The position numbers and the translations under genes are program-made. From assembly GCA_024679065.1 (NCBI GenBank), contig JAGIQG010000004.1:54870001-54934000 (forward strand): a stretch of DNA of 64,000 bases, written 5' to 3'. Under the pieces are notes generated by a model, which saw only the letters and a list, made by a program, of their open reading frames with translations, had not been told where the DNA came from and ran no database searches. This document shows positions 1,960 to 64,000 of this stretch, one piece after another; positions within the stretch are counted from its first letter, which is position 1; each line of letters starts with the position of its first letter. Origin of the DNA: Sphyrna mokarran (lineage: Eukaryota).

Positions 1960-3010
1960 TAAGAGCAACACAGCACGGGAAACAGGCCCTTCGGCCCAAC
2001 GAGCCCGCGCCGCCGTCATAACTATATAGTAGCAATTCCATTATCTTATTATAGATTTAGGTTATTCCTAATATGGAAGACTCTCACTATAGGGACAATT
2101 TGTTTCCCAATCAGCCTAAGAGCGAATTTTTGGGTTGTGGGAGGAAACCGGAGTGCCCGGAGAAAACCCACGCAACCACGGGGAGAACGCGCAAACTCCC
2201 GCAGACACCGGCCCAATTCCAAGTGTCTGCACAGCCACATCGATAGTCTCTGAGCTGTCATGGTGCCCTTCAGATGGTCCACATAAAGCACTCATTTACG
2301 ACATGAGGTACCAGGCAACCCATGAATCAACATCCAAGAGCTGTACCCGCACCACCTGCCGAATGCATGCTCAATGTTGGTCAAGTATGGACCGAATTAC
2401 CTGTGGAAAAAGAGCCGTAGTTAAACAGTCCTACTATATCCCTCTATCTGCATACCGCTCATGTGGCTGTCCAAGAGATCCTTAAACAGCCCCAGCGTGC
2501 CTGCTCCCACCACCTTACTCGGCAGTGCATTCCACACCCCCACTACCCTTTGTGTGAAAAACTGCCCTCTAATATTCGTCTTATACATAGCCCCCCTCAC
2601 CCTATGGCCATGACCCCTCGTCCTATCCATTTCTAAAGGTGGAAAAAGTTTACCTCCATTTACTCTATCTATACCCCTTATAATCTTATACACCTCTATG
2701 AGATCCCCTCTAAGCCGACGTCTTTCAAGGGAAAACAACCCCAGTCTATCTAATCGTTCCTCATAAGACAGTCCTTCCATACCAGGCAGCATCCTGGTAA
2801 ACCTCCTCTGCACTCTCTCCAAGGACTCCACATCCTTCCGATAGTACGGCGACCAGAACTGGACGCAGTATTCCAAGTGAGGCCCAACCAACGTTCTATA
2901 CAACTGCAACATCAAACTCCTACTCTTGTATTCTATACCCTTTTCTATGAAAGCTAACATACTATACGCCTTCTTTACCAGCTTCTCCACCTGTGAGGAC
3001 ACCTTCAGAG
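1960..3010 (-). mobile_element. 5'-truncated CR1 LINE (ORF2 C-terminus) with a SINE-containing 3' UTR
   Basis: ORF 2421..3002 has CR1 C-terminal motifs (HLEYCVQFWSP, LERRRLRGDLIEVYK, FFTQRVVGVWNALP). It is followed by a spacer, a V-SINE-like body and a gggccgaagggcctgtttcc tail. The insertion is absent from the paralogous flank near 29940. Confidence 0.9.
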
Positions 3011-4139
3011 ACTTCTATGCCTTCCTCAACTCTATTCCACGATTGAGCATCTAAATTAAAATCCTACCTACTTCATAACAGCTCATGTCCCATTTGCGTC
3101 GTTTCCTTTGTGAGACCCATAACATCGGACCTTAGTGAAAAGCACCAGTTTGAAATACCTGATGCCAATCTTATTGCGATCTTAATGTTGACTGATTGTT
3201 GAAAAATAAAACAAGTGTTTCAGTATTTGACTCAAGCTATGTTTTGTAAAAGTACTGGCACAGTCTACTGATCCGAAAGGCCATTTACCACTTAAACGTT
3301 GAAACTGGTAAATTCGATGTTGAGAAACGTTTCACGACTTGCATTATGTTTCGTGCTCTGAATGAATGTTCTACAGTTTTCCAATTTGCGAATATATCTG
3401 CAAACTAAACAAAAGAAAGGAGAAGTGCTTTTTGTCTATCAACCTGTCTATCAAAATGACAGGTTACAAAATAATTCAGTGGTAGAAATGAATAGGTAAA
3501 GATAAAGATGGGCGGTCTAAAAATATTTTACTCAAAGCCAACTAGCGAAATGTTCTACTGCTTTTATGGGACCTATGTTTCTGATATTTTAATTTGAATG
3601 TTGCAAAAGTAAGAAGAGAACTCGCGCAATAACATTTAACCCCCATTCATTCCACTGTGGCGATGCGACAATGTTTCATAATATGACTAAATCTGTTGTG
3701 CCGGGAGATATATGCGTTTACAATTCTTTCGCTTTAGAGTTCTGGTCAGGAAGCCTCAGTTCTCTTCGTGCCATTGTTAATATTAAGTCGTCCGGTAAAA
3801 CTCGATGCCAAGCAGCCATATACTATAACTGGTTGTGAAGAAATACGCCGTAAATCCAATGATATCAGTCACTAGAAACAATAAGCCAATTGCAGTATTC
3901 TGTTCTACTGCGAGAATGGACTTTCGCAAGAGAAGAGTACTCGCAGTCTTGCCACTGAAGTTGTACCACTAACAGAACACTAATCTGTTGTTACCTGATC
4001 AAAGAATTGCAAAAACTGTGGTTGTGTAATGTTTGTGCAACTGACCTCAATCCAACGAATTTTGCTGGAAATATGAGGTGGAGGATTTGAAGTCAGATTT
4101 TAAAATACAACTAGCAACATGATTTGGAAAAGTACTGTT

Positions 4140-6881: not shown

Positions 6882-6936
6882 ATGTCGCTGAGAACTGCAG
6901 TTCAGTGTATGGTTCCTCTGTGGATGGTCTGGACAG
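6882..6936 (+). CDS. VJ-C1-TM Ig-superfamily receptor gene 1, leader exon (MSLRTAVQCMVPLWMVWT/G)
   Basis: ATG plus 18 codons plus 1 nt, then donor CAG|GTAT (phase 1). Same length as, and homologous to, 33013-33067. Confidence 0.8.
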
Positions 6937-9588: not shown

Positions 9589-9885
9589 TTCCCCCAACCC
9601 CCTTGAAGCTCTTTCAGGTTGAAGGGATTTCAGCGACCTCTCTGATGTTCGAATGTAAAACGGCTGCCTTTTACCCAGAGGATTTAAAAATCTCCTGGCG
9701 CAGAGATGGTGTGGAAATTCTCGCCGGAATAGAAACTGTGAGAAACAAGACAGTGGATGGTCTTTTTGAGGTCACCAGTTCTTTGGAAGAAGCACAACCT
9801 GTCCCGAGCCGAATAGTTTATACATGTCTGGCATCTCATATCTCCCTTAAGGTGCCCGCCAGTGTCAGCTATATCGCCATTCAAG
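9589..9885 (+). CDS. Gene 1 C1-set Ig domain exon
   Basis: Acceptor tttccttgttaaag|TT, donor G|GTAAG, phase 1/1, 297 nt. C1 signatures CKTAAFYPEDLKISW, DGLFEVTSSL, YTCLASHISL. Confidence 0.93.
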
Positions 9886-11155
9886 GTAAGATTGGGCACT
9901 TGCAGCAGCGAGCGAGGCGTCCGAACTGTAGCTATTTATTAAACATTTAGCAGGCCAGCTGTTCAAACACCAAGTTGCAGGGTGAGTGTGGACATTCTTT
10001 AATCTCAATGCCACATCAATGGAAATGAATTAAAATATCTAAGGTGGTTTGTAACTGTAGGAGAGGGAATATTTCCCTGAAAACATGCGAAACGGGAGGG
10101 ATATATGAAAGTGCTCAAAACTGAAAGCTTTTCTTTAATCAAATTCTTGCCAAATGAAATGAACATACACATGAAATGGATTAGATTTAGCAGTATCACT
10201 TTGATCGGACAACTCCTGTTTGGATCTTTAGCCAACGATATCGTTCAAGGACCTTTCCTCCATGATCCAGATCTTTTTGACCATTATGAAACTATTTCTC
10301 TTTGATCCAAACACTTAACTTTGGGGGGAAATGTTCTGCCTGGATTTGCATCATTCGTTGAATTCCTTTCCTTAGTTTTTCTCTCAAAATGCAAAGGCAT
10401 AAAAATCTCCTCTGGTTGCAATTTCGGTTGTGCACCTTTACTCCAATAAACAATACCCAATTACAGTTATTAGCATTGTGGGTGCAAACTTTAAAAATGC
10501 AAGTACAGAGTGTTTGGCGCTTGATCCGTGTTCTGATGAAAGTGCATCTGCCATGAAGGAAACGAGCCAAGCTACCAAACTAAATATCAGAATCCGAAAG
10601 CATAACTTTCGTCCTGATGAAGTTAGCCGTGCGGGAAGATCCTAACCTGATCTTCAGCGAGTTAAATTTTGATCGCTGAGGGCGGTGTTGTGTGATCAAG
10701 TTGTACTATCCCACATTATTATAGGTCCAGAGGGGCATTTATTTTTTTCCCTACAAAGCCAAAAATATTTTTAAGCCATTTGTTTGGGGTTTCTTTATTA
10801 TTTTGTCAATACATCTAGTGGGAAGAGCAAGCACACATATTATATCCTAAAATGGACATCAGTGTCCTATTTGAAGAGAAGCCAATTGCCGACAAAATGG
10901 CGCTGGCACCAAGCAACAGGCTGTTTTGGAAGATGGAGTGCATTATGTTAAAGTGTTCACATGGTGCTCAATTTGAGGGACGTTTTTTGATAGTATTTTC
11001 TGTATGGTTGACTTTGGAAATTTAATATCGGTCACAAAGTTTAGAGTAGCAATTTTATGGATCTCTTTGATGTCTAGAAGCCAGTACTGTTTGGTTTCAT
11101 ACAATAATTCATATGTACAGGAAATTTATATGTATATTTTAATCTTGCATTGTAG

Positions 11156-11259
11156 ATAACAGTTTCCAGAACGTGATGATTTCACGACATGTTCTGAGTT
11201 TATTGATAATTCTTGGATTGCTGGGTATAATTGTGGACTATGTAGCATATTTCAATTGA
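11156..11259 (+). CDS. Gene 1 transmembrane exon (DNSFQNVMISRHVLSLLIILGLLGIIVDYVAYFN*)
   Basis: Acceptor ttgcattgtag|AT in phase 1, hydrophobic stretch, TGA at 11257-11259, donor AG|GTAAG at 11262. Colinear with 38193-38298. Confidence 0.85.
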
Positions 11260-12357
11260 AGGTAAGGGGACACCGTTTTAATTGAGCAAACCACGTTCAA
11301 AATATATATGCACAGTTGACACTGGTGGGCTGGAAATGGGAAATGTGCTTTTGTCCGTCGCTTCTCCGGTAATTTAAGGCTCACAAGCAGTGATATTAAA
11401 TTTTCCTAGCAAGTAACTCACAAGATAGAAGGCCACCACTTTTACCTCGGCAATGCTCATACTTAGTGCTGCTAAAAGTCGCAGCGATGAAATGTTGAAT
11501 CTTTTTCCCTTCCAAACCCTGCCGCCTGATCTGCCGAGTTTTTGCCACGTTTTCTGTTTTATATAATATTATATTAGTTTTCGTATTAAATTCAGTTTCA
11601 CGCATGATATGCCAAGTGATAAACACCGAACGTCAGTTTTGAGCGTTGGTTTAGTTTCATCTCCTTTCGTGAAAAAATTTTGGTTTCAACTTTTCACTTG
11701 AGATACTTGAACACAAATCTCCAGCTAGCATTGCAGCGCAGGACTGCTGGAGGTTTGGTCTGTTTTCAACGACTAAAAACGAGACCCTCTGCTCTTTATG
11801 GTGACCGTAAAAGCCTAATTGGTCATTTCGTAACTGAGCATCGTGACCTGGTCAGAAATTCGTTTTCAATCTACTTCGCTAAAATCGATTCATTTTTCAT
11901 TTATTTCAAAAATCTATGTGATTAAGAACGTCCCTTGTTATTTTATTAAGTGCACGTTGCACATCCAGCTAGTGTGAAAGACTGCATATCAATATTGATC
12001 CGTTCTTCTGTTTTGCAAGATTTTCATGTATGATTAGAAAATTCATCATGCAAACGACACTTTCTGGGCACTGTTTTCCATTTTGCGTTAAACTCTGCTA
12101 AAATTATGAGGTTAGGAATCTGGCAGAAGTACTTAATTTCGGAAATATTCTTCTCATGATGAAATTTTCACTACGTTTATATGTATCATTTTATCTATTT
12201 TGCTTCCCTTCTCAAGGCACTGTGTCTAGCTGCGACGCCCACAATCTTCTCGCGCCACCAGATCATTTGGTATTACCATTAAAGCATCACGTTGTTGAAC
12301 TCAGAGTCCTCATTTTTAGATTAGCAGTTTAAATCGAGGCCCTGGAATAAGTATCTG

Positions 12358-14894: not shown

Positions 14895-15117
14895 GTTAAG
14901 ATCGATTGATAATCTCTGCCTCTGTTTATGCCTGCACGGAAGCAATACGTTAGACGTTGTTAAAGAAGAACAGATACAGGCAGAGGGAGAAACACTCAAA
15001 GCAAGGAACAAGGCAAAGGAGCCACAATCAAGACGGATCAGGGGCACTTCCAGCATTCGCTCACAACCATTTTCAGTTGTGTTTAGATACACTTTTTTCT
15101 ACAGCATTAGAATATAA
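14895..15117 (+). other. Candidate downstream (3' UTR or vestigial cytoplasmic) exon of gene 1; 3' end uncertain
   Basis: Strong acceptor ttttctttttgttag|G, conserved at the homologous position of gene 2 (ccag|G, 39748). The downstream sequence is alignable between the paralogues. Confidence 0.5.
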
Positions 15118-33012: not shown

Positions 33013-33067
33013 ATGTCGATACAAATTACGGTTCACTATATGACTCTTCTGGGCATGTTTTGGCCAG
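33013..33067 (+). CDS. VJ-C1-TM Ig-superfamily receptor gene 2, leader exon (MSIQITVHYMTLLGMFWP/A)
   Basis: ATG plus 18 codons plus 1 nt, then donor CAG|GTAT. Homologous to 6882-6936. Confidence 0.8.
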
Positions 33068-36641: not shown

Positions 36642-36938
36642 TTCCTCCAACACCACTGAAAATTGTTCGGATTGAAGAGAATTCAGCGACTTCTCTAAGA
36701 TTCGAGTGCAAAACGGCTGCATTTTACCCGGAGGATTTAAAAATCTCCTGGCGCAGAGATGGTATGGAAATTCTGGCCGGAATTGAAACTGTGAGAAACG
36801 AGACAGTGGATGGTCTTTTTGAGGTCTCCAGTTCTTTGGAAGAAGCACAGCCTCTCCAGAACAGAGTCGTTTATAAATGTCTGGCATCTCATATCTCCCT
36901 GAAGGTGCCCGCCAGTGTCAGCTACCCGGTCAATCGAG
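36642..36938 (+). CDS. Gene 2 C1-set Ig domain exon
   Basis: Acceptor ctgttaaaag|TT, donor G|GTAAG, 297 nt. VPPTPLK...CKTAAFYPEDLKISW...YKCLASHISL; 79/99 aa identical to gene 1 by hand count. Confidence 0.93.
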
Positions 36939-38192: not shown

Positions 38193-38296
38193 AGTACAGT
38201 TTCCGCAATGTGATGATTTCACGGCATGTTCTCGGTTTTCTGATAATCCTTGGACTGCTGGGCATTATTGTGAACCATGTGACACGTTTCAATTGA
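38193..38296 (+). CDS. Gene 2 transmembrane exon (EYSFRNVMISRHVLGFLIILGLLGIIVNHVTRFN*)
   Basis: Acceptor tttcattctag|AG, TGA at 38294-38296, donor AG|GTAAG at 38299. The exon is 106 nt, as in gene 1. Confidence 0.85.
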
Positions 38297-39300
38297 AGGT
38301 AAGAGAACGGCTTAATTCCGTAAATCACGTAGAAAGTTGATTTCTACGAAGATAACATTGGTGGATTCGAAATGGCCAAGTCAAGTAATAAATTCCGAAC
38401 GTCAATTTTGAGTTTTGGCTTAGTTTTAGCTGCTTTTATCAAAAAAGAGTTTGGTTTCAACCTCTCACTTTAGAAAAATGAGCACAAAGTATTTCAGAGC
38501 AGCACTACCGGAAGTTTGGTCTTCGTTCAATCGTTTAAATAGTGTACCGCCTGCTCTGTCCGGTCACCGCAATGACTTCATGAAACATTTCCATAACTGG
38601 GTATCGTAATGCTCGCTGATCTCCAGATCAGTATTTGGCTTTTAATCTTCTTCACTGAAACCGACGTCCTGAATAAATATCTGGAGAAGAATATAATGTT
38701 GATTTCCGTCCAGTTCTCTCTGAAAACACAGGCCGTGTAATCTATTCCAGAGGATATCCAAACATACATCTCCTAATGTATTTATCTCCGTGAGATGCCC
38801 AAGCGTTGCATACGTCCTTATTAAGAGTCAAGAGGTAATTATTTAAGTTTGCTGGAAACCCGAAATGAAAACTTATGCAAGCTATGGCTGGAATCCAAAG
38901 CCTTTTGGTTAACATTAAGGCGTCGCATCAAGCCCATGATTGAGTACAATGTCTTATCTTGTCAGTTTGGACTTTCGTTGCCTCTCTTGTAGGGACCATA
39001 ACTGGAAACAATTGAAATTTGAATCTAGTTTTTGGAGCATGAAAAGGAAGAATTCTGGTTTTCAGGGTCCACTCTGCGCATTGGATTTCTAACTTTATGG
39101 AGAAAAAAAATAAAAAAATAAATCGGTGCATACCAGTGAGTGCAGACAGTTTGAATATGTCAACTCAGATTTATATCTGTATTTGTTATAGAGCTGTATT
39201 TGTGTTTAGATATTATTCTATATCCAATGAGTGAAAGTCCATCTTGGGTAATCAGGACTTTCCATTTATCTTTTCTATAAAAGAGATGTAACACATAATT

Positions 39301-39747: not shown

Positions 39748-39995
39748 GTAAAGATCAACTGATAATTTCCACCTCTGTTCATAATTGCACAAGAGCAGTA
39801 TCTTGCCCTTTGGAAATGAAGAACACGTGTTCAGATACAAGTGGGCGAAGAAATACACGAAATAAGAAAGAAGATGAAGAAGCCACAATCAAGACGAATG
39901 GGGGGCGAGTGCACTATCTTTCTGTAAAATTAGAAAATGAAAATACAATTGTAGTTGGCCCTGTGCATAAAATCAGTTTAGTGCATTTCCTGTAA
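39748..39995 (+). other. Candidate downstream (3' UTR or vestigial cytoplasmic) exon of gene 2; 3' end uncertain
   Basis: Acceptor ttttgtttttaataaccag|G is homologous to 14895. Confidence 0.45.
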
Positions 39996-41522
39996 TGCAA
40001 CAACAGCAATGGCCTTGTTTGAAGGCTCATGTTGTATTGTTCGGAGGGATGGGGAGAAAGAGGAAGAGCGGCGCTGGCACATATCTTAATATATAAATCT
40101 CGTTAATAGAAATAATTGTTTTCAATAAATTTAACTTTAATAAAAATTCGCATTAGAATATTTTTGGCAAGTGTAACTTTCATATGTCTTTTTATGGAAG
40201 ACATTGGAAATGTTTGCGAGAAACCGTTCTGTTCATGTAATTTAAATCTGAGACATATTCCGGAACCACCAACAACAGCCCATGTTGGTTGTATTTTTGT
40301 CTCTGTCAATAGACAATAGGTGAAAACTATAGCATTTCAAGAAGGCAGCACAGTACCATCTTCTCAGGTCATTAGGGATAGGCAAATGTTCGCCTAAACA
40401 GCGACTCCAAGCCCATGGAGGAATTTTAAAAAAAGGAATGGTTGCTTTAAAAAAAAATGAAGTCACTTTCATCCCAGATGACATAGTCTGCTTTCCTTTT
40501 TGAGGCGGGGGGGGGGGGTTAAGAATGTTGGGGGGGGGGGGGAGGAGCTAACTGGTTGTGATTTAATCTGAGAAACGTCGCGTTTCATGCAAAGGGCAGG
40601 ATTCAGGAGCCGGACCTTCATAAAAATCTCAGCAGGTATGAGAGCTGAACCTATGCATTTGGTATCAGCAAGTAGCCACACTGCGACGTGAACTAACCAT
40701 CTCCAAGCAGCAGCCTTGTTCACCTGGGCATTCAACTGCAATACATCTCGCTCTTATTTCAACTATGAACAAGGCGATCATCCGTTCAGCTGGTCCCAAT
40801 CAGACAGATCTTAAAGTAAACAATCGAGACATATTTCAGCATAAATTTCTGTTGTTTTGACCTTCTACCTTTATTTAGTATATGGTTGCCAAGTTATGAA
40901 CTTCACTTCAAATTTGGTCATTTTTAATGTGGAATGCGGTCGGACGAACTGTGTACGTGATCACGGCACCACATCAATGCAAATCCGTCAATTTACTTTA
41001 TCGCAAACGCTTAGTCGGGCTAACTTTCACATAAAACTATCTATTTAGTTAGACACAACTGTTCAATCAAATACAAATTTTAAGCTGAGAAGTTTTCCAT
41101 ATTAATTACAATTGAATATGAAATATTTCAATTAATTTTAAAAGCGTATAATCGTTGACACATGAGTCTTGAATCAATCAGTGAGAGTTCGGTATGAATG
41201 TTTATCGCACCCAAGAGGAAATGATCTCACCGAATCGCTCTCAGTTACCACATAGTCAAACGCGTTGGGCCCGATTTTACCAATAGGAGCCCAAGGGCCC
41301 GGTCCGGGTGTAATATGGATCCGAGCCAGTAATCCCCTGTGCAGCACGTCATAGGCTTCTTATTGGCACCGATCTGATCTGCGCTGTGAGCGGGGCTCAG
41401 CGCTGCAAAACATTTTATCAGCAAAAGATTTGTCACCTGACTGATTAGCATAACATGTTAAGCATCGTTTAATATACTTCGGAGCTGAAAACTCGATTTT
41501 AGCGATCTAGCTGTATATGATT

Positions 41523-44500
41523 CAAAGAACAAAGAACATGAACAAAACAGCACGGGAAACAGGCCCTTCGGCCCAACGAGCCCGCGCCGCCACCCCGATG
41601 TTCCCACCTCTACCCGCGATCCCTGTCTATGTTTATAGATCTATGGATTAAAAACCAAATTTGAGACAATTTAGGCAGAATTTGTTTTGCCAATTAGCCT
41701 AAGAGCACATCTTTGGGATGTGGGAGGAAACCGGAGCACCCGGAGAAAACCCACGCAAGCACGGGGAGAATGCGCAAACTCCCACAGACACAGGCCAAAT
41801 CCATGTATCTGCACAGCACAGCGATAGTCACTGAGCTGTCGTGTTGCCCATCAAATGGTCCAGGTCAAGCGTACACTAACAACATGAAGCACTCGGATAC
41901 TCTCGAAAAAAATCCAAGACCAGCCCTCTCGCGACCCATCGCGTGTATGCCCCTTGTTAGACAACAAGGTGGACCAAAGCACCTGTAGGATAACAACAAG
42001 TAAATCAATATCTTCATCTATTTACATACTTCCCAGGGACTCCCAAGGCTCATGATCCCTATTTTAAATCAGTTTTCTATACCCCTCCATTCCCATTCTG
42101 TTCATGTGCCCATCTAAGTATTTCTTAAATAACTCCAGAGTGCTTGCCTCCACCACTTTATTTGGCAGTGCATTCCATACTCCCACCACCCTCTGTGGAA
42201 AAAACTCCCTCTAGCATCCAAATTATACCTTACCCCCCTCACCCTAAGCCCGTGACCCCTCGTGCTATTTGAGTCCATCCTAGGAAAAAGCTTAGGCCTG
42301 TTTACTCTATCTATCCCCTTCAAAATCTTGTACACCTCTATCAGATCTCCTCTAAGTCTACGTCTTTCTAAGGAAAACAGTCCCAATTTGTCTAATCTCT
42401 CCTCGTAACTCAGACCTTCCATACCAGGCAGCATCCTGGTAAACCTCCTCTGCATTCTCTCCAGAGTCTCCACGTCCTTCCGGTAGTAGGGCGACCAGAA
42501 CTGGACACAGTATTCCAAATGAGGTCTAACCAACGTTTTATACAACTGCAACATTAAAGGCCAGCTCTTGTACTCTATACCCCTTCCTATAAAGGCTAAC
42601 ATATTACATGTTTTCTTCACAACTTTCTCAACTTGCTCTGCCACCTTCAGAGACTTGTTCACCTGCACCCCCAGGTCCCTCTGCGTTTCTATACTCGTAA
42701 TACGTCTACCCTTTATCATATACCTCCCCACTACATTCTTTCCACCGAAATGCATCACCTCACATTTATCAGGATTGAATTCCATCTGCCATCTGTCTGC
42801 CCAAGCTAACAGCCTATCTATGTCCTGCTGCATCGCCTGACAATGCTCCTCACTATCCGCAAGTCCAGCCATCTTTGTATCGTCTGCAAACTTGCTGATC
42901 ACTCCACTTACTCCCACTTCCAAGTCATTTATATATATTACAAATAGAAGAGGTCCCAGTACCGAGCCCTGCGGCACACCACTAGTGACCGACCTCCAGC
43001 TAGAGAAACACCCTTCCACTATTACTCTCTGTCTCCTATTACCAAGCCAGTTACTTATCCATCTAGCTACCTGTCCTTGTATCCCATTAGCCTTGACCTT
43101 CTCGACTAACCTCCCATGAGGGACTTTGTCAAACGCCTTACTAAAATCCATATGGACGACATCAACGGCTCGCCCTTCGTCCACCGTTTTCGTCACCTCC
43201 TCAAAAAATTCTACCAGATTTGTAAGGCACGACCTCCCTTTAACAAATCCATGCCGCGTATCCCTAATCAGATCGCAACGCTCTAAGTGCCTATACATCC
43301 TATCTCTAAGAATCCCCTCCAACAGCTTCCCTACCACTGACGTCAAACTCACCGGCCTATAATTTCCAGGGTTATTCCTACTACCCTTTTTAAACAACAG
43401 TACAAAATTAGCTATTCTCCAGTCCTCTGGGACCTCAACTGTGTCCAAGGAAGAGACAAAGATTTGCGTCAGAGGCCCAGCAATTTCACCTCGCACCTCC
43501 CTAAGCAGCCTGGGATAAATGTCGTCAGGCCCCGGAAATTTATCAGTTTAAATGCTACCTAGAAGCTCTAACACTTCCTCCCTCAGTATGGATATTTCCC
43601 TCAACTGGTCCACAGCTCCCTCAGAGACAGGACCTGTCAACAAGCTCCTCTCCTTCGTGAATACCGACGCAAGGTATTCTTTCAGGATCTCCGCCATTCC
43701 CTCGGGCACAGTTCCCCTCCTCCGTCCCTAAGAGGTCCACTTTTTCCTCTAAGCACCCTTTTATTCCTAACATAGGAGCAAAAAGCCTTTGGATTTTCCT
43801 TAATCCTATCCACCAAAATCATTTCATGCCCCCTTTTTGCCCTTCTAACTCCCCGTTTGAGCTCCTCCTACTCTCTCTATATTCCTCCAACGCTGTCTCC
43901 GTTCCCAGCTGCTTTGACTTATCATACGCCTCTCTTTTCTTCTTAACCAAGTCCTCAATATCCCTAGTAATCCACGGCTCTCTAATCCTACCTTTCCCAT
44001 CTTTCCTCTTGGCTGGCACATACTTATCTTGCAACATTTTCAATATTCCCTTGAAAGAGTCCCATATGCCTAGCGTGGACTTACCCTCGAACAACCGTTC
44101 CCAATCAGTTTCCATAAGTTCCTTCCTAATCCGACCGTAGTTAGCCTTCCCCCAATTCAGCACCCTGCCCCTAGGGCAACAAGCATCCTTTTCCATCTGT
44201 ATCCTAAAGTAGACAGAATTGTGGTCACTGTTAGCCACTGTTCCCCTGCTACAACATCAACCACCTGCCCTGGCTCATTACTCAGAACTAAATCCAATAT
44301 AGCCCCTTCTCTAGTCGGGCTAGCCACGTACTGCTCCAACGATCCTTCCAGTACACATTTTATAAATTCCTGCCCGTCCAAACCCCCAGCTATAGATACT
44401 TTCCAATCCACCCTAGGGAGATTAAAATCTCCCACTATAACGACTCTGTTCTTTCTGCACCTATCCAAAATGTCTTTACATATGCCTTCTTCAACTACTC

Positions 44501-44640
44501 GCGGGCTGTTGGGTGGTCTACAGTACACCCCTAGCATAGTAATCGCCCCTTTTCTATTCCTCAACTCCACCCACAGCGACTCCACTCCTAACTCTGTATT
44601 ATCCTCTCTCTGCACCGCCGTGATGCTCTCCTTAACTAAG
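41523..44640 (-). mobile_element. Relatively young 5'-truncated CR1 LINE (partial APE endonuclease plus RT, frameshifted) with SINE-containing 3' UTR
   Basis: ORFs 44157..44708 (VGDFN, LDLVLSN), 43819..44238 (SDHNSV) and 42114..43496 (NYRPVSLTS, GVPQGSVLGPLLF, SKFADDTK). Confidence 0.95.
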
Positions 44641-44935
44641 CCACCATTTAACGTGTATAAACAACGATTCAAAACGGCACTCAATGTATCCATAATTCCC
44701 TGTTTCAAACTCAGGAGTCAGAAACAGAAAAGAATACTCCTCAATACTCAGGCATCGGAACGTGCCCGCAGAGTCGCGTGAAACAAAAGTGGGAAAAGGT
44801 TTGACTTTTTGTTGTTTTAGAATAATAATTACAGATAATTGTATGAAGTTTCACTTCATTTACATCCAAAATATCCATCAACTTGGAATGAATTTTCCAC
44901 AATTTCCATTACCCAGCTTTCCTATGAATACTGAC

Positions 44936-52427: not shown

Positions 52428-55400
52428 AGTGCGTGTGCGTGGAATCTAGAAAATGTTAATAAAGCAATTCAACACTTGAAACATAGTTCAGAATGTTTTA
52501 TGAATGGTAAGTATTAGAAATTAATAAATGAATTCACTACTTAAAACACAGTTCTGAGTATTGTTTTTAATTATTAAGTAAACACTGTTGATAATTTCTG
52601 CCTCTGCTGCACATAATTCCACGAATGCAATACCATAGTGTTTGACCAAGGAAAAAACACTTCCAATACAATTGGAAGCGCAGAGAGCAGAAAGATTCAA
52701 AAGCTAGGAGCAAGACGAAGGAGCCACAAATGAGGAAAATTGAGAGTTCGTGCAGCATTCGCTTAGAACTATTTCACCTTGAATCTTACAACATATTCGT
52801 CCTCTAACATTAGATCATATAATCTCAACTCCTGATTGAATTCTATATGGAAAATGAGCTTGATTCCATGTAAACGGCTATATTATGAAGAGGGAGAAGG
52901 CTATGGTTGCGTTTTCACATCTATTCTTTTTTACAGGCTGTCAGGTAACTTGATGGATGAATGGTGATAAATGACGTTAATTTTTAAATAAATCTATTTG
53001 GTAATTGTGCATACGATGCTTCTGAATGTGCAAGCATTTCTGTTGTGTTACGTTTTACTGACATTAAGAGAAGAGCCCCATAATTTTCCGTTCATAGAAT
53101 GATAAATGCGCGGTGCGTTAAAAGACTATTAAAAACAGTACACACAGCTTGCATTTCTGCTTCTATCCATAGACACGACATAAGTTCTGAAGTTATGCAA
53201 CATTATTAGTTTGCTTTCTTTTGTACCAAGTCATAAGCGTAGAATCGTCTTCCTGCTTCTGGCCGTTCAATTGCCCGGAAAATTAAACACAGGCCCTGTT
53301 CGGAATATGAAGAGCGAGATTTACTGGTAACATGAGATGTATTTTCGCAATAGTCAGCCCTTCGAACTGAATAAATTGTCAATAACTTTATTAATGAATG
53401 TATGTAGTCTCTTCTCTGCAAGTTGTTTGCATATTTTACGATGATTGCACTCCACAGAGAATTGTTTGTGGTATGTTTTGGAATGAACCAGGTGAGTGAT
53501 TAGGACATCATTTGAAAGCAGTATCTTTACTATACTTCACGGTAGTAAGTCTTTCGAGCAATACTCTTTTACTGTGGCAAATGTTTTCCAATGTGCAGTT
53601 GTGCAGTTTTTCAATATCAAACTTCAAATATTTAATATTATTTAATGCTGAATGATATGCTTCAATCAAACCTTAGAGGAGAAGCAAAAAGCTCTATCAT
53701 TTTTTAACCCGACCCATTATCTCAACTTCGATCAATATTTTGCCAGCATCCTCTTCCTTCATTAAGACCAAGATACAATACTTATCCAGAATTCTATCTG
53801 CTGCGTTAAACATATATCACATTCTTTGTTTCAATAGATGACTCCACACCCGCGGCCAGATTGCTATGGGCATACTGGGAGTAGTTCTTTGATTCCGTTT
53901 TATGTTAACTGCTATTCTATTCTCATGTATTTCTTATGTATTTTCGAGTCTTAATTCCCTTTTCTCGTCCTCTTTCAACTTATGGTATCTGCCCTGAGTA
54001 ATCCATCTGACATGCACCTTGCACCTGTTTTGTTTCAGCATAACATACACCTTCCAAACACCCAACAATCTGCTTAACATTGGGTTGTCTTTATCTATTG
54101 TTGAAATGTATCTATTCTGGACCCGAAATGTTTCCTCCTTAAAGATTCCCTCTTTGTTTCCTGAATGAACTTGCACTAAATTTTCATGTTGGAATATAGT
54201 ACAGGCTAAATATATTCTCTTTAATTAAAGCAGAGATAAATAAAACCACACATTTTTCACCCATGTTTTCATCTCCTTATGGACATTTCGGGTGGTATAC
54301 AGTCAATTTTTTACATGGCTTCAACACACAACCTGCGTATGCGTTGGGGAGGACATCCAAAAAACTATTTTACTCTCAGCGGAGGCCTACAACTTCAGTT
54401 CACTGATGAACCATCAAGAATGGAAACTGTAAGTTTTTAACTTATCTTTTTATCTCAAAGAAGTGTCAATCCATTTGACATGTTCCATCAGTGATTGAAA
54501 TTCAACAAAATCAGGAAATCCACATCGAAATGTTGATGATTGCATATTCTTGTCAGGTTAACTCATTATGAGGAGCCGTTGGAAATTTTCCAAGAGAAGA
54601 ATGCTGTGTAAAAGCAAAGCATTTATTTGTGAGGCAGTATCGCAGTAAAGTGCATTGCTTATCTGTTTTTTTTTCTATAAATGTAATGATGTTGAGGAAG
54701 CGTACAAGGCTATTCAACTTTTCAGTTCGTTTCTGACGTTAACTCCTGGGCCCAATTTACTTATTGTTGCGCCATATATCTCGAAATATTTATCCAAGAA
54801 TCATGTGTCTGTCTAAATCCTTGATGAATTTAATGAGTTTCTAAGTTACAAATATCCATTACAATTTGCGTGAAAATGAACATGTGCAATATACTCATGC
54901 TATAATACTTCTTATTAACTCTAAATATGTATTTGTTCGAGCGATTTTTATATTTACTACCTCAACTTATATTAGATTCATTTCGACGTTTAGTTTATAA
55001 ATATGATTAGCATTCCACAGTGCCATTTGCAAGGCGACAAAATATGGAGAGCTGTTTTTCAATATTTAAGTGTGTACAACGTTCTGGTAGTAATTCATCA
55101 GCCTGACTGTTTCTCCTCTTACAGATTTCTCCTGGGTTGCACTAGAGCTCGAGCATTTTGCTGTTTTCGTTTCAGATTTTCAGCATCATCTATGTTTCAT
55201 TTCTTATATCATGAGATGGAATGTTTTGAGAGATAACTGACTACAACCGATGATTCAGGCTTTTGCTACACATTGCATTGAGAATGAGCTGTGGTGAGAG
55301 CAAGGGTGAAGAAGAATATAATCATATATTGTGATGGGGTTGAATTAAACCAAGTGGAATGGAACGTATTTTCAGTGAAATTATTGCATGGCGGAGTTGT

Positions 55401-61515: not shown

Positions 61516-64000
61516 TTAGTTTAAAAGCAGGGACATAAAATGGAAATCCCTTACCTGTGTCTTTACAAATGGGAATGTGCTACATCTGTTCAATGAAATT
61601 GGATGACAAGATGTTGTAATGGATTTCTGTTTTTGCAAAACTCTTCCTTGATCATTTCCAATTCCATATGTATGATATACAGTAGGAGGATAAGAATCAG
61701 ATTAGTAAGGAACATTCCTCGCCAAGTGGCCAGAATTTGTTTAAAGTTGGCTTTTATTGTTGATTTTGGGCAATGTGCTGAAGCTGTGATTTCTGACTCA
61801 TTGAGATCAGTGTTAGGGTATTTTAGCGTATAGAAAAATGCAATACGTGTGGGAGACTTAAACTTAACCTTCCTAAATCTTGTGCAATCATTAGTAAGAA
61901 AAGATAGACAATGTATGCAGGAAGACGCCTTCAGTCACGTAAAGAAATTAATTAAATAATTAAATGCCAATAGACGAAATAGTTACATTTTTCCGTTGTA
62001 ACTTTAGTACTGTTTGGAAAGGTACAGTGACATGTTTAAAACAGAACATCCGTTGCACGCGTCTGTTGCTACAATTATATATTAAAACACGCGACGTTAA
62101 GTAATGCTGCTATTGAATACTTGATACGTCCACAGTGTGTTGCAATGTTGCTACATTTAGAAACGGTATGTTCGCATTTCGAGAAGATCGAGTGAAATAC
62201 GCCCACTGCCAAGTTCCAATCGTCAATACGCCTTGTCAATATTTAGCAAAGTATAAATGTAACTCAAAAAGAAAGTTACAAACCCCCAGCAAATAGTTTA
62301 CACTCTATCAGCTTATCCAGATAAACCGCCAACACAGTAATCTTTTACATACCGCGCATACAGTTGTCTCTATTTGAGTTAGCTTAGCATTAAAATTAAT
62401 TATACTATTTTGTTTCCATATTGAGCCAACTATTGTTTGTCAGGTAAGAAAATTAAATGTTAGGTAAACAGGAGTATTATGACAGTTGAACAATTGCCTA
62501 TTTACTTACATTTTTCAGGATCCATCTCCTTCCGGTTAAATCTTTTATTGTCAGCCTAACTAAACGGATCAAATCCCAGTGGATTAAAAACAAACAATGA
62601 ACATGGTTTCTTCCATGGAAGTATTTGAAGAAACAAATAAGACAACAGAGAAGGACGCTGCAGAAGATGCCGACTTTATGGAAGAAGAAAATGACAGTCT
62701 AGCACTATAGGAGAATGACGCTTGGATGAAGAATACATGCTGTTTATTGCAAAATGGAATTCGATGCATATGCATAAAAGAGAACTTCGAGTGCTCTGGG
62801 GAAAGAATCTGGATGGGAATAATTGGGCAATGCTGTTCAATTGCCAGCACGGGTCAAACGGTCACCTTCTCAGATACAGGATTCCACAATTCGACACAGT
62901 GTCATGTGGAAATAGATGTTTGTAAAGCAAGAAACAACTCGAACCTACTTTCAGAAATTGATAGGGAAATCCAAGTATTCAGCTTCAACTGTTTTCTTCC
63001 AGGAGCATCAGCTGAACTGGACGTAATGCACTGGTTCAACGTAATGACGGGACGTATGAATCTACACACAGGTTTTTCTGTGTTACTGAACAAAGTGAAC
63101 ACTGATCATAAATTTGTAAAAGATCCTAGAAAATCGATTTTTTAAAATTTTATTTTACAGATAATTAAGTAACACGGGACACAATGTATCGTTATAGCCA
63201 AAGGAACATAATTGTCATTATTTTTAAAATATATTTATTTTTGACAAGAAAGTTATCTTTTCCAGAAAAAAAATTTCTTAGAATAACCGAGTAGCAAGAT
63301 AATGTATTGCATTATCTGATAGTCATGATGTCGTCCAGTAAAAACACTGTTGGTGCCGGCACAGCAGATGGACGCGATCAGGGTAGACCGTAGGCGTGAA
63401 TTCTGCGTCGAAATTCAATTGCTAATCGTTTTCCGCCTCCGTATAGCCAGTCTTTTTTGCCCCATTTTGCTTCGTTCTCCGCAGTTGGGCATATTCAGTG
63501 CACGTTTCTTTAGCTTTGCCTTTGTCTGAGCCGGTCAACGCTACACGTGAGTATATCAGGTCATTACCGACTTTCCTTTGTTGCGTCTGCAAGGTCAATG
63601 TTTAAAAATATTGTTTACTGGTTGCATCACAAGTCCCATAGTCCGTTGTTCAAAAAAAATTCATCAGAAGGGCACGCAGATCATCTTATAACAGCATAGG
63701 GGCAAAGTCAACAGAGACATATTTCCTGCTTTATCGCATGGGTATTGATGTTACACTGGTGTATTTTATTTCTCTGATCGGTTACTCGGCCCCACCTGAG
63801 AATACTCACCTTGTCACTTTTATGCTTTGGAGTTTTGCTCAAATCTAATGCAGCATAATGCACAAATCCAGACGCATTCTCCTGTTTGTGCAAAACGGAA
63901 AACTTTTGTTACGTGGCTTGTTCATTGTGTTCATCAGTTTACACTAATTTTGGTCAAACATTGAGCGGATTAACTTGGAATCCAATAGACGTGCACAAAA

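Follow-up and report, generated by a model that had tools for sequence, protein, structure and literature searches.

Arginine-anchored VJ-C1 genes of Sphyrna mokarran as putative activating paired receptors, with an exon-end stop that probably arose by recent frameshift

Results

The window, by which we mean the whole 64-kb stretch of Sphyrna mokarran DNA analysed here, holds two genes of the same build, gene 1 and gene 2, with the following exons.

6882..6936, + strand: gene 1 leader exon, with ATG, 55 nt, phase 1; matched by the N-termini of shark models P0007-P0010
7137..7442, + strand: gene 1 unsplit VJ-type exon with a GxG G-strand and without a nearby RSS (Pfam V-set 40.5 bits; RSS scans negative)
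9589..9885, + strand: gene 1 C1-set exon (Pfam C1-set 31.3 bits, above the cut-off)
11156..11261, + strand: gene 1 transmembrane (TM) exon; Arg at 11185-11187, Asp at +17 (11236-11238), stop at 11257-11259, AG/GT donor
14895..15100, + strand: gene 1 downstream exon, a predicted 3′ UTR; only the start is fixed and the end is approximate (score 144 vs 38 for the control)
33013..33067, + strand: gene 2 leader exon; matched by the N-terminus of catshark P0008
33251..33556, + strand: gene 2 unsplit VJ-type exon (Pfam V-set 52.6 bits)
36642..36938, + strand: gene 2 C1-set exon (Pfam C1-set 31.8 bits)
38193..38298, + strand: gene 2 TM exon; Arg at 38222-38224, Asn at +17, stop at 38294-38296, AG/GT donor
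39748..40144, + strand: gene 2 downstream exon, a predicted 3′ UTR; AATAAA at 40124 and 40139, end approximate

In each of the two genes, all four coding exons (leader, V, C1 and TM) are open and phase-compatible and have GT/AG ends, and the Pfam scores of the V-set and C1-set exons all exceed the cut-off. The gene 1 TM exon follows an acceptor AG at 11154-11155, starts in phase 1 and is 106 nt long; its Arg codon is CGA, and its TGA (11257-11259) is followed by AG and the donor GTAAGG. In gene 2 the Arg codon is CGG, and TGA (38294-38296) is followed by AG and the donor GTAAGA. The Arg is the tenth full codon of the TM exon in both genes and is followed by a hydrophobic helix and a tail of 6-7 residues, and the arrangement first described for this locus, SF[Q/R]NVMISRHVL, a hydrophobic helix, about seven tail residues and TGA-AG/GTAAG, was found again in both. 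In the TM core, 8 of 18.7 silent sites and 4 of 53.3 replacement sites differ between gene 1 and gene 2 (pN/pS 0.18), and over the six pairs of four paralogues pN/pS is 0.13-0.50, all of these being small numbers. Because the exons are open and phase-compatible and silent changes exceed replacement changes in the TM core, the TM exons represent more than chance. From their sequence, we read them as membrane exons belonging to intact genes of the leader-VJ-C1-TM type, and the TM core of the Arg-anchor paralogues, within the limits of these small numbers, as being under purifying selection.

The V region and its J-like strand form a single exon, and RSS scans detected no RSS within the 64-kb window or near the V exons. 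Neither TM exon contains Cys or Lys, and catshark models splice C1 directly to the TM exon, so that the gene 1/2 type has no hinge exon; the earlier failure to see a hinge-Cys exon or a second TM Lys is borne out. Since there is no free Cys near the membrane, a disulphide-linked dimer of the TCR type is unlikely. The downstream exons of gene 1 and gene 2 are homologous to a short tail exon that is coding in other sharks. Elsewhere in the window, two LINE fragments, presumably of CR1 type, carry reverse transcriptase and endonuclease frames (42117-44717 and 2424-3014, both on the minus strand).

The gene 1-type C1 exon occurs at no fewer than 69 places in this genome (at least; 150 of 190 candidates were scored), 36 of which lie on the contig of the window: 20 at 54.19-55.03 Mb, 15 at 62.40-63.25 Mb and 1 at 50.24 Mb. 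A TM exon, picked by eye among script candidates, could be placed for 34 of the 36 loci; the other two are interrupted by stops in V or C1. Of 19 homologues of the C1 exon, 18 are named, and these all come from cartilaginous fish. Eleven loci have a C1 exon at least 76% identical to that of gene 1. Four of these (gene 1, gene 2, L001 and L007) carry the Arg exon, as an anchor without a tail, and seven carry an uncharged TM exon that is spliced on in phase 1. Tyrosine-motif exons lie downstream in six of the seven uncharged paralogues, four having a last exon of the LTYATL type, while none was found downstream of L003; for the six Arg-anchor genes of the genome, searches over 4.8-19 kb downstream found a tyrosine-motif exon in none. 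The ectodomains of Arg-anchor and uncharged tyrosine-tailed paralogues are near-identical, and database models of the relatives show the same two kinds of C-terminal end. In a C1 tree of 97 columns, in which many forks are open and L034 was omitted as too short, gene 1 and L001 group with the uncharged L002/L003 (100/99), and gene 2 sits among L004-L009. As judged from these sequences, the sharing of C1 between Arg and uncharged tyrosine-tailed genes is the usual paired-receptor pattern. Two further family features lie in the window.

63422..63586, - strand: last exon of the convergent family gene L011, with an ITIM-like LIYSRV and an ITSM-like TEYAQL; an inhibitory-type neighbour
52503..53015, + strand: orphan downstream exon, a copy whose acceptor is damaged (score 147 vs 47 for the control)

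The last two tail exons of L011, which converges on gene 2, occupy 63422-63880 on the minus strand (about 54.93-54.94 Mb of the contig, C993). No V, C1 or TM exon was found ahead of the orphan exon, which is likely left over from a deleted gene, judging by sequence; its phase-1 peptide is nearer to the tails of other sharks than are those of gene 1 and gene 2.

The Arg anchor was found in 6 of 34 TM exons of this genome, including the distant paralogues L031 and L015 (protein z 5.7 and 4.5), and in ten database proteins (catshark, 2; Heptranchias, 4; horn shark; two bamboo sharks; white shark). The shark models with the anchor come from five orders and from several clades of ectodomain; it was not seen in the small sample of ray and chimaera models retrieved, and one of the four Heptranchias anchors has Gln instead of Arg. 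Its constant features are the outer Arg, an Asp or Glu (sometimes Asn) 17 residues later and then a His. The Arg is unchanged in 12 of 12 aligned anchors, rows that were picked for having the anchor, and is encoded by CGA, CGG or CGT. At +17, the four close paralogues have Asp in two and Asn in two; Asp or Glu is present in 10/10 anchors of relatives and 3/6 of this genome. Most anchors begin the exon with D/E-[N/Y/H]-S. An Asn at -5 from the Arg occurs in the four close paralogues and is absent in L015, L031 and Heptranchias. The outer Arg also occurs on the other exon type (L012, L014, L017, L023 and L027), and because L012 and L023 combine it with tyrosine-motif tails, it is not diagnostic on its own. 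On the uncharged exon type (L027:6232-6340, L014:5893-6007 and the L012 TM exon; L027 reads ISR vs ISG in its sister L019), gain of the Arg may possibly reflect separate switches to an activating form.

Searches with the anchor itself returned little. A PDB search with the TM exon gave 0 hits and one with the anchor profile 5, all of them one serpin peptide; a homologue search with the TM region matched only two catshark proteins among 29 candidates; and the Heptranchias anchor scored <0.8 in the ESM Atlas. A genome match of the L015 anchor on C938 was weak and was judged to be chance. The anchor profile (146 rows) scored turtle-type receptors at 15.7, 7.4 and 6.8 bits, other family exons at ≤9.9 bits and TCR exons at about 0; only the turtle-type receptor at 15.7 bits, in a set retrieved by summed repeat scores, stands clearly above background. 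These turtle proteins are multi-VJ-domain paired receptors (P0158, P0144, P0187, P0183 and P0072) with tyrosine-tailed and Arg...Glu+17 forms, and they carry misleading database names (titin-like, pIgR-like).

The origin of the stop could be traced through the exon ends. In 4/4 close paralogues the exon-end letters translate as SIE or SVE in phase 1 and, in phase 0, as QLK, a double reading found in 0 of the other 34 exons tested (38 in total); Heptranchias models read SIE-GKGR, with SIE followed by the tail exon, and catshark models read QLK or RLK. None of the 10 anchors of relatives has a stop at the exon-end place, the models reading on into the short tail exon, as far as these tails and junctions can be taken from automatic gene models in which codons are deduced from protein only (the phases of P0069 and P0080 are ambiguous). 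L031 reads PF-stop-AG vs PFK-D in its white-shark sister P0098, apparently through one extra T. The letters for stop plus AG lie out of frame in 7 of 27 phase-1 family exons (T-AAA-G or T-GAA-G); L010 and L011 are among the exons with such latent letters, and the Mustelus counterpart reads through. The uncharged L020 likewise ends in stop+AG. We conclude from these sequences that the stop before the donor in the close paralogues was likely made by a recent frameshift and not inherited together with TCR alpha. Small deletions past the helix would shift a phase-1 end reading Ile-Glu-Gly so that the same letters become stop-AG, and such a frameshift would leave a short tail exon, by then dispensable, as 3′ UTR. 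Because all six anchors of this genome end in phase 2, five of them with stop+AG, it is also possible that the stop at the exon end is an old state, later lost in other sharks. The AG after the stop was considered as a special feature and set aside, being merely the donor consensus. Nonsense-mediated decay follows a rule of 50-55 nt between stop and junction; because the stop lies 2 nt ahead of the last identified junction, escape from decay is predicted, as had been proposed.

The original prediction had pointed to a likeness with TCR alpha/delta, whose constant genes stop at the end of the TM exon and have a separate 3′ UTR exon. To compare with the shark's own genes, TCR exons were located by a degenerate motif (16 matches, against 10 in a reversed control), four of which, on C994, are TCR exons; the Pfam TCR alpha C model had no match in the genome. 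Two TM exons are alpha-like and end TGA-AG/GTGAG and two are delta-like and end TGA-G/GTAAG, labels that we assume in part; the general statement about TCR exon ends therefore applies to this genome, and a separate downstream exon is likewise present for gene 1 (14895) and gene 2 (39748). The alpha-like loci have a C exon and a Cys hinge exon upstream, the hinge lying 0.7 kb upstream in both. The similarity of the TM exon itself did not hold up: among the 34 exons compared with it by protein alignment, the four TCR exons rank 18, 22, 23 and 24. The FQN of the motif was rejected as a sign of TCR alpha homology, the mammalian FQN aligning to LLS in shark TCR alpha.

Discussion

We consider it probable that gene 1 and gene 2 are activating members of a paired-receptor family whose Arg docks an FcR-gamma-type adaptor, and that their stop comes from a recent frameshift and not from TCR alpha. 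The original prediction of activating receptors is favoured by the paired layout, by the conservation of the Arg amid silent codon change, by the lack of a tyrosine-motif exon in the stretches searched downstream of the six Arg-anchor genes (0/6) and by the presence in the genome of an FcR-gamma-like exon with a membrane Asp (E 4e-11). Binding of a ligand by the V domain would cluster the receptor; its Arg would pair with the membrane Asp residues of an FcR-gamma dimer, and the adaptor ITAMs would signal via Syk-type kinases, by analogy with FcalphaRI, GPVI, NKp46 and Xenopus XFL. An adaptor of this kind would render the short tail dispensable, and the tail could then be lost via frameshift. 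Activation of gene 1/2 through an FcR-gamma-type adaptor is, from the sequence features, likely. When the TM peptide was modelled in complex with two copies of the FcR-gamma-like peptide, the score was 0.15 against a mark of 0.34, without folded controls, and speaks neither for nor against docking. A spacing of 17 between the Arg and the acidic residue probably also holds in mammalian LRC receptors. The TM of LRC receptors that docks FcR-gamma has been described as combining an Arg within NxxR, a DYT start and an inner end that is acidic, and is reported from amphibians, birds and mammals (PMC6557307); Xenopus TM1 receptors with such anchors are reported to be tail-less and to associate with FcR-gamma (PMC2413239), and such TM exons have been counted in frogs (PMC4536121). 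By its sequence, the shark anchor fits this published type in part, with the Arg, a roughly similar start and, in many copies, the acidic inner end. The His at +1 and the Asn in place of Asp at +17 could weaken the anchor in some paralogues.

Descent from TCR alpha/delta, with the TM exon homologous and the genes non-rearranging relics of a TCR alpha precursor, would account for the identical end letters of the alpha-like exons of this genome (TGA-AG/GT), for the similar exon length (106 vs 109 nt), for the phase-1 start with Asp in gene 1 and for the phase-2 end of all six anchors. A VJ-C1 ectodomain model that best matches light chains and TCR chains also points that way; its Foldseek matches (catshark orthologue, pLDDT 78) are at TM about 0.33 and do not discriminate. 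The Arg of TCR alpha docks the same adaptor family. Against such descent, protein and DNA similarity to the four shark TCR exons is at shuffle level (z -0.5 to 0.1 and -0.4 to 0.8), the anchor profile scores them at -0.6 to 0.9 bits, and no PDB TCR entry was hit at E≤10, while a shark TCR exon retrieved TCR alpha/delta in 22 of 26 rows, at 1e-6. The Lys+5, Asn+10 and Thr+14 of the TCR helix are absent, the spacing from Asn to Arg is 5 vs 10, the gene 1/2 type has no Cys hinge exon, the C1 exons fall outside the TCR/Ig group in a tree with long branches, the TCR loci lie on another contig, and 10/10 models of relatives lack the stop. We regard this descent as highly improbable, and give as little credence to the broader idea that the genes preserve a pre-RAG template of TCR alpha, in which an Arg exon sharing its origin with the LRC anchor signalled before the hinge Cys and the CD3 Lys were added. 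The convergence that the original prediction had allowed for is favoured by the shuffle-level similarity, the lack of a PDB TCR match and the frameshift-like stop.

It is unlikely, though not to be dismissed, that the proteins are tail-less decoy or adhesion competitors of their ITIM paralogues, or that they use CD3-zeta (in lymphocytes), DAP10 or DAP12. L020 and the Mustelus models P0126 and P0173 lack a tail and have an uncharged helix core, which shows that the family does include tail-less proteins without the Arg anchor; the genome has a second zeta-family exon (L039); and P0121 has Gln in place of the Arg. Yet shark models from five orders and several clades of ectodomain retain both the Arg and a polar residue at +17, the TM core is under purifying selection, and the central Lys used by the partners of DAP12 is absent here. 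We think it very unlikely that frequent skipping of the TM exon, or decay of the genes, leaves a secreted V-C1 or nothing as the main product. Skipping would stay in frame, because the C1 donor and the acceptor of the downstream exon are both phase 1 (9885/14895 and 36938/39748), and would yield a secreted V-C1 protein; the horn shark model P0007 joins C1 directly to the downstream exon, and the cluster contains the broken copies L029, L032 and L034 and an orphan last exon. The coding exons of both genes are nonetheless open, with canonical sites, the TM exon is under purifying selection, and catshark and Heptranchias models include it. L020:5852-5961, with its uncharged core, stop+AG/GT and the same stop in Mustelus models, is a candidate decoy in its own right.

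Among known systems, LRC receptors (LILRA, FcalphaRI, GPVI, NKp46 and OSCAR), Xenopus XFL and SLAM TM1 resemble the Arg-anchor genes in their outer Arg, in a TM and tiny tail in one exon, and in pairing with uncharged tyrosine-tailed relatives. Compared through published features, LRC/XFL may also share an exon start of the acidic/Tyr-Ser kind and an acidic residue at the inner end. They differ in that the shark anchor has no Asn at -3 (NxxR is absent), in that the shark ectodomain is VJ-C1 and not C2-type, and in the intron after the shark anchor exon. SIRP alpha/beta share a V plus C1 ectodomain and the pairing of ITIM with charged-TM members; a PDB search with the family profile lists SIRP alpha in its fourth row (E 8e-26), and database labels of relatives are often SIRP-alpha-like. 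Unlike SIRP, which is V-C1-C1, each window gene has one C1 exon. Coupling of SIRP beta to DAP12 runs through Lys, and the shark TM has Arg and no Lys. The neighbours of SIRP are NSFL1C (SEP domain) and PDYN; SEP-domain matches were found on C668 and C1326 and none on C993, and an opioid-precursor search found no match anywhere in the genome. SIRP beta itself is reported to couple to DAP12 (PMC12975943). NKp30/NCR3, PRARP and UrIg/UrIg2 share the single-exon VJ domain, and the C1 exon finds its top single PDB match in UrIg2 (E 8e-14, a sum across three domains). NKp30 differs in having no C1 and in being MHC-linked, while the shark genes have C1. UrIg is reported to have at least three C1 domains (PMC12227049). 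All 53 of 53 MHC class I hits lie on C1548, and the VJ-C1 cluster is on neither that nor the TCR contig. TCR alpha/delta share the order VJ-C1-TM, the helix Arg and the stop followed by AG/GT and a further exon; the gene 1/2 type differs in its lack of RSS, Cys hinge and Arg-x4-Lys-x4-Asn-x3-Thr motif, of which it has the Arg only, in similarity no better than that of shuffled sequence and in a stop that appears to be derived. By the defining features of TCR, SIRP and NKp30, the family falls outside all three; by analogy, it would function as LRC/XFL activating receptors do, with the build of a SIRP that has a single C1. In PDB searches with the V and C1 profiles, multi-domain proteins made up most of the matches, and no family could be named from them.

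If the reading as FcR-gamma-coupled activating receptors is correct, sharks possess a large innate system of on/off receptors, built on an antigen-receptor-like VJ-C1 frame and coupled to FcR-gamma, and the Arg-anchor genes become concrete candidates for shark NK or myeloid activating receptors. The presence of the anchor in sharks suggests, with about an even chance, that the membrane exon for FcR-gamma docking, described in amphibians through to mammals, dates to the jawed-vertebrate ancestor. A gene ending like that of TCR alpha can, on this reading, result from a frameshift of one or two bases, and antigen-receptor ancestry should be claimed from exon layout only with care. In the main text of the literature searched no account of the family was found, although an earlier description is possible; PMC12227049, PMC10751288 and PMC11599192 describe, in the sections concerned, other VJ genes only and not this VJ-C1 family.

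Some further observations concern other genes. Database names of the relatives (SIRP-alpha-like, B7H6-like, tapasin-like, light-chain-like) are misleading for this VJ-C1 family. About 28 near-identical light-chain-type C exons lie at 81.0-81.9 Mb of C1548 in the same genome (G000), a few Mb from MHC class I genes. The constant loci of the TCR comparison, two alpha-like and two delta-like, lie at 3.07, 3.87, 4.38 and 5.36 Mb of C994 (L070-L073), and the alpha-like TM of L070 has a Cys two residues ahead of its Arg.
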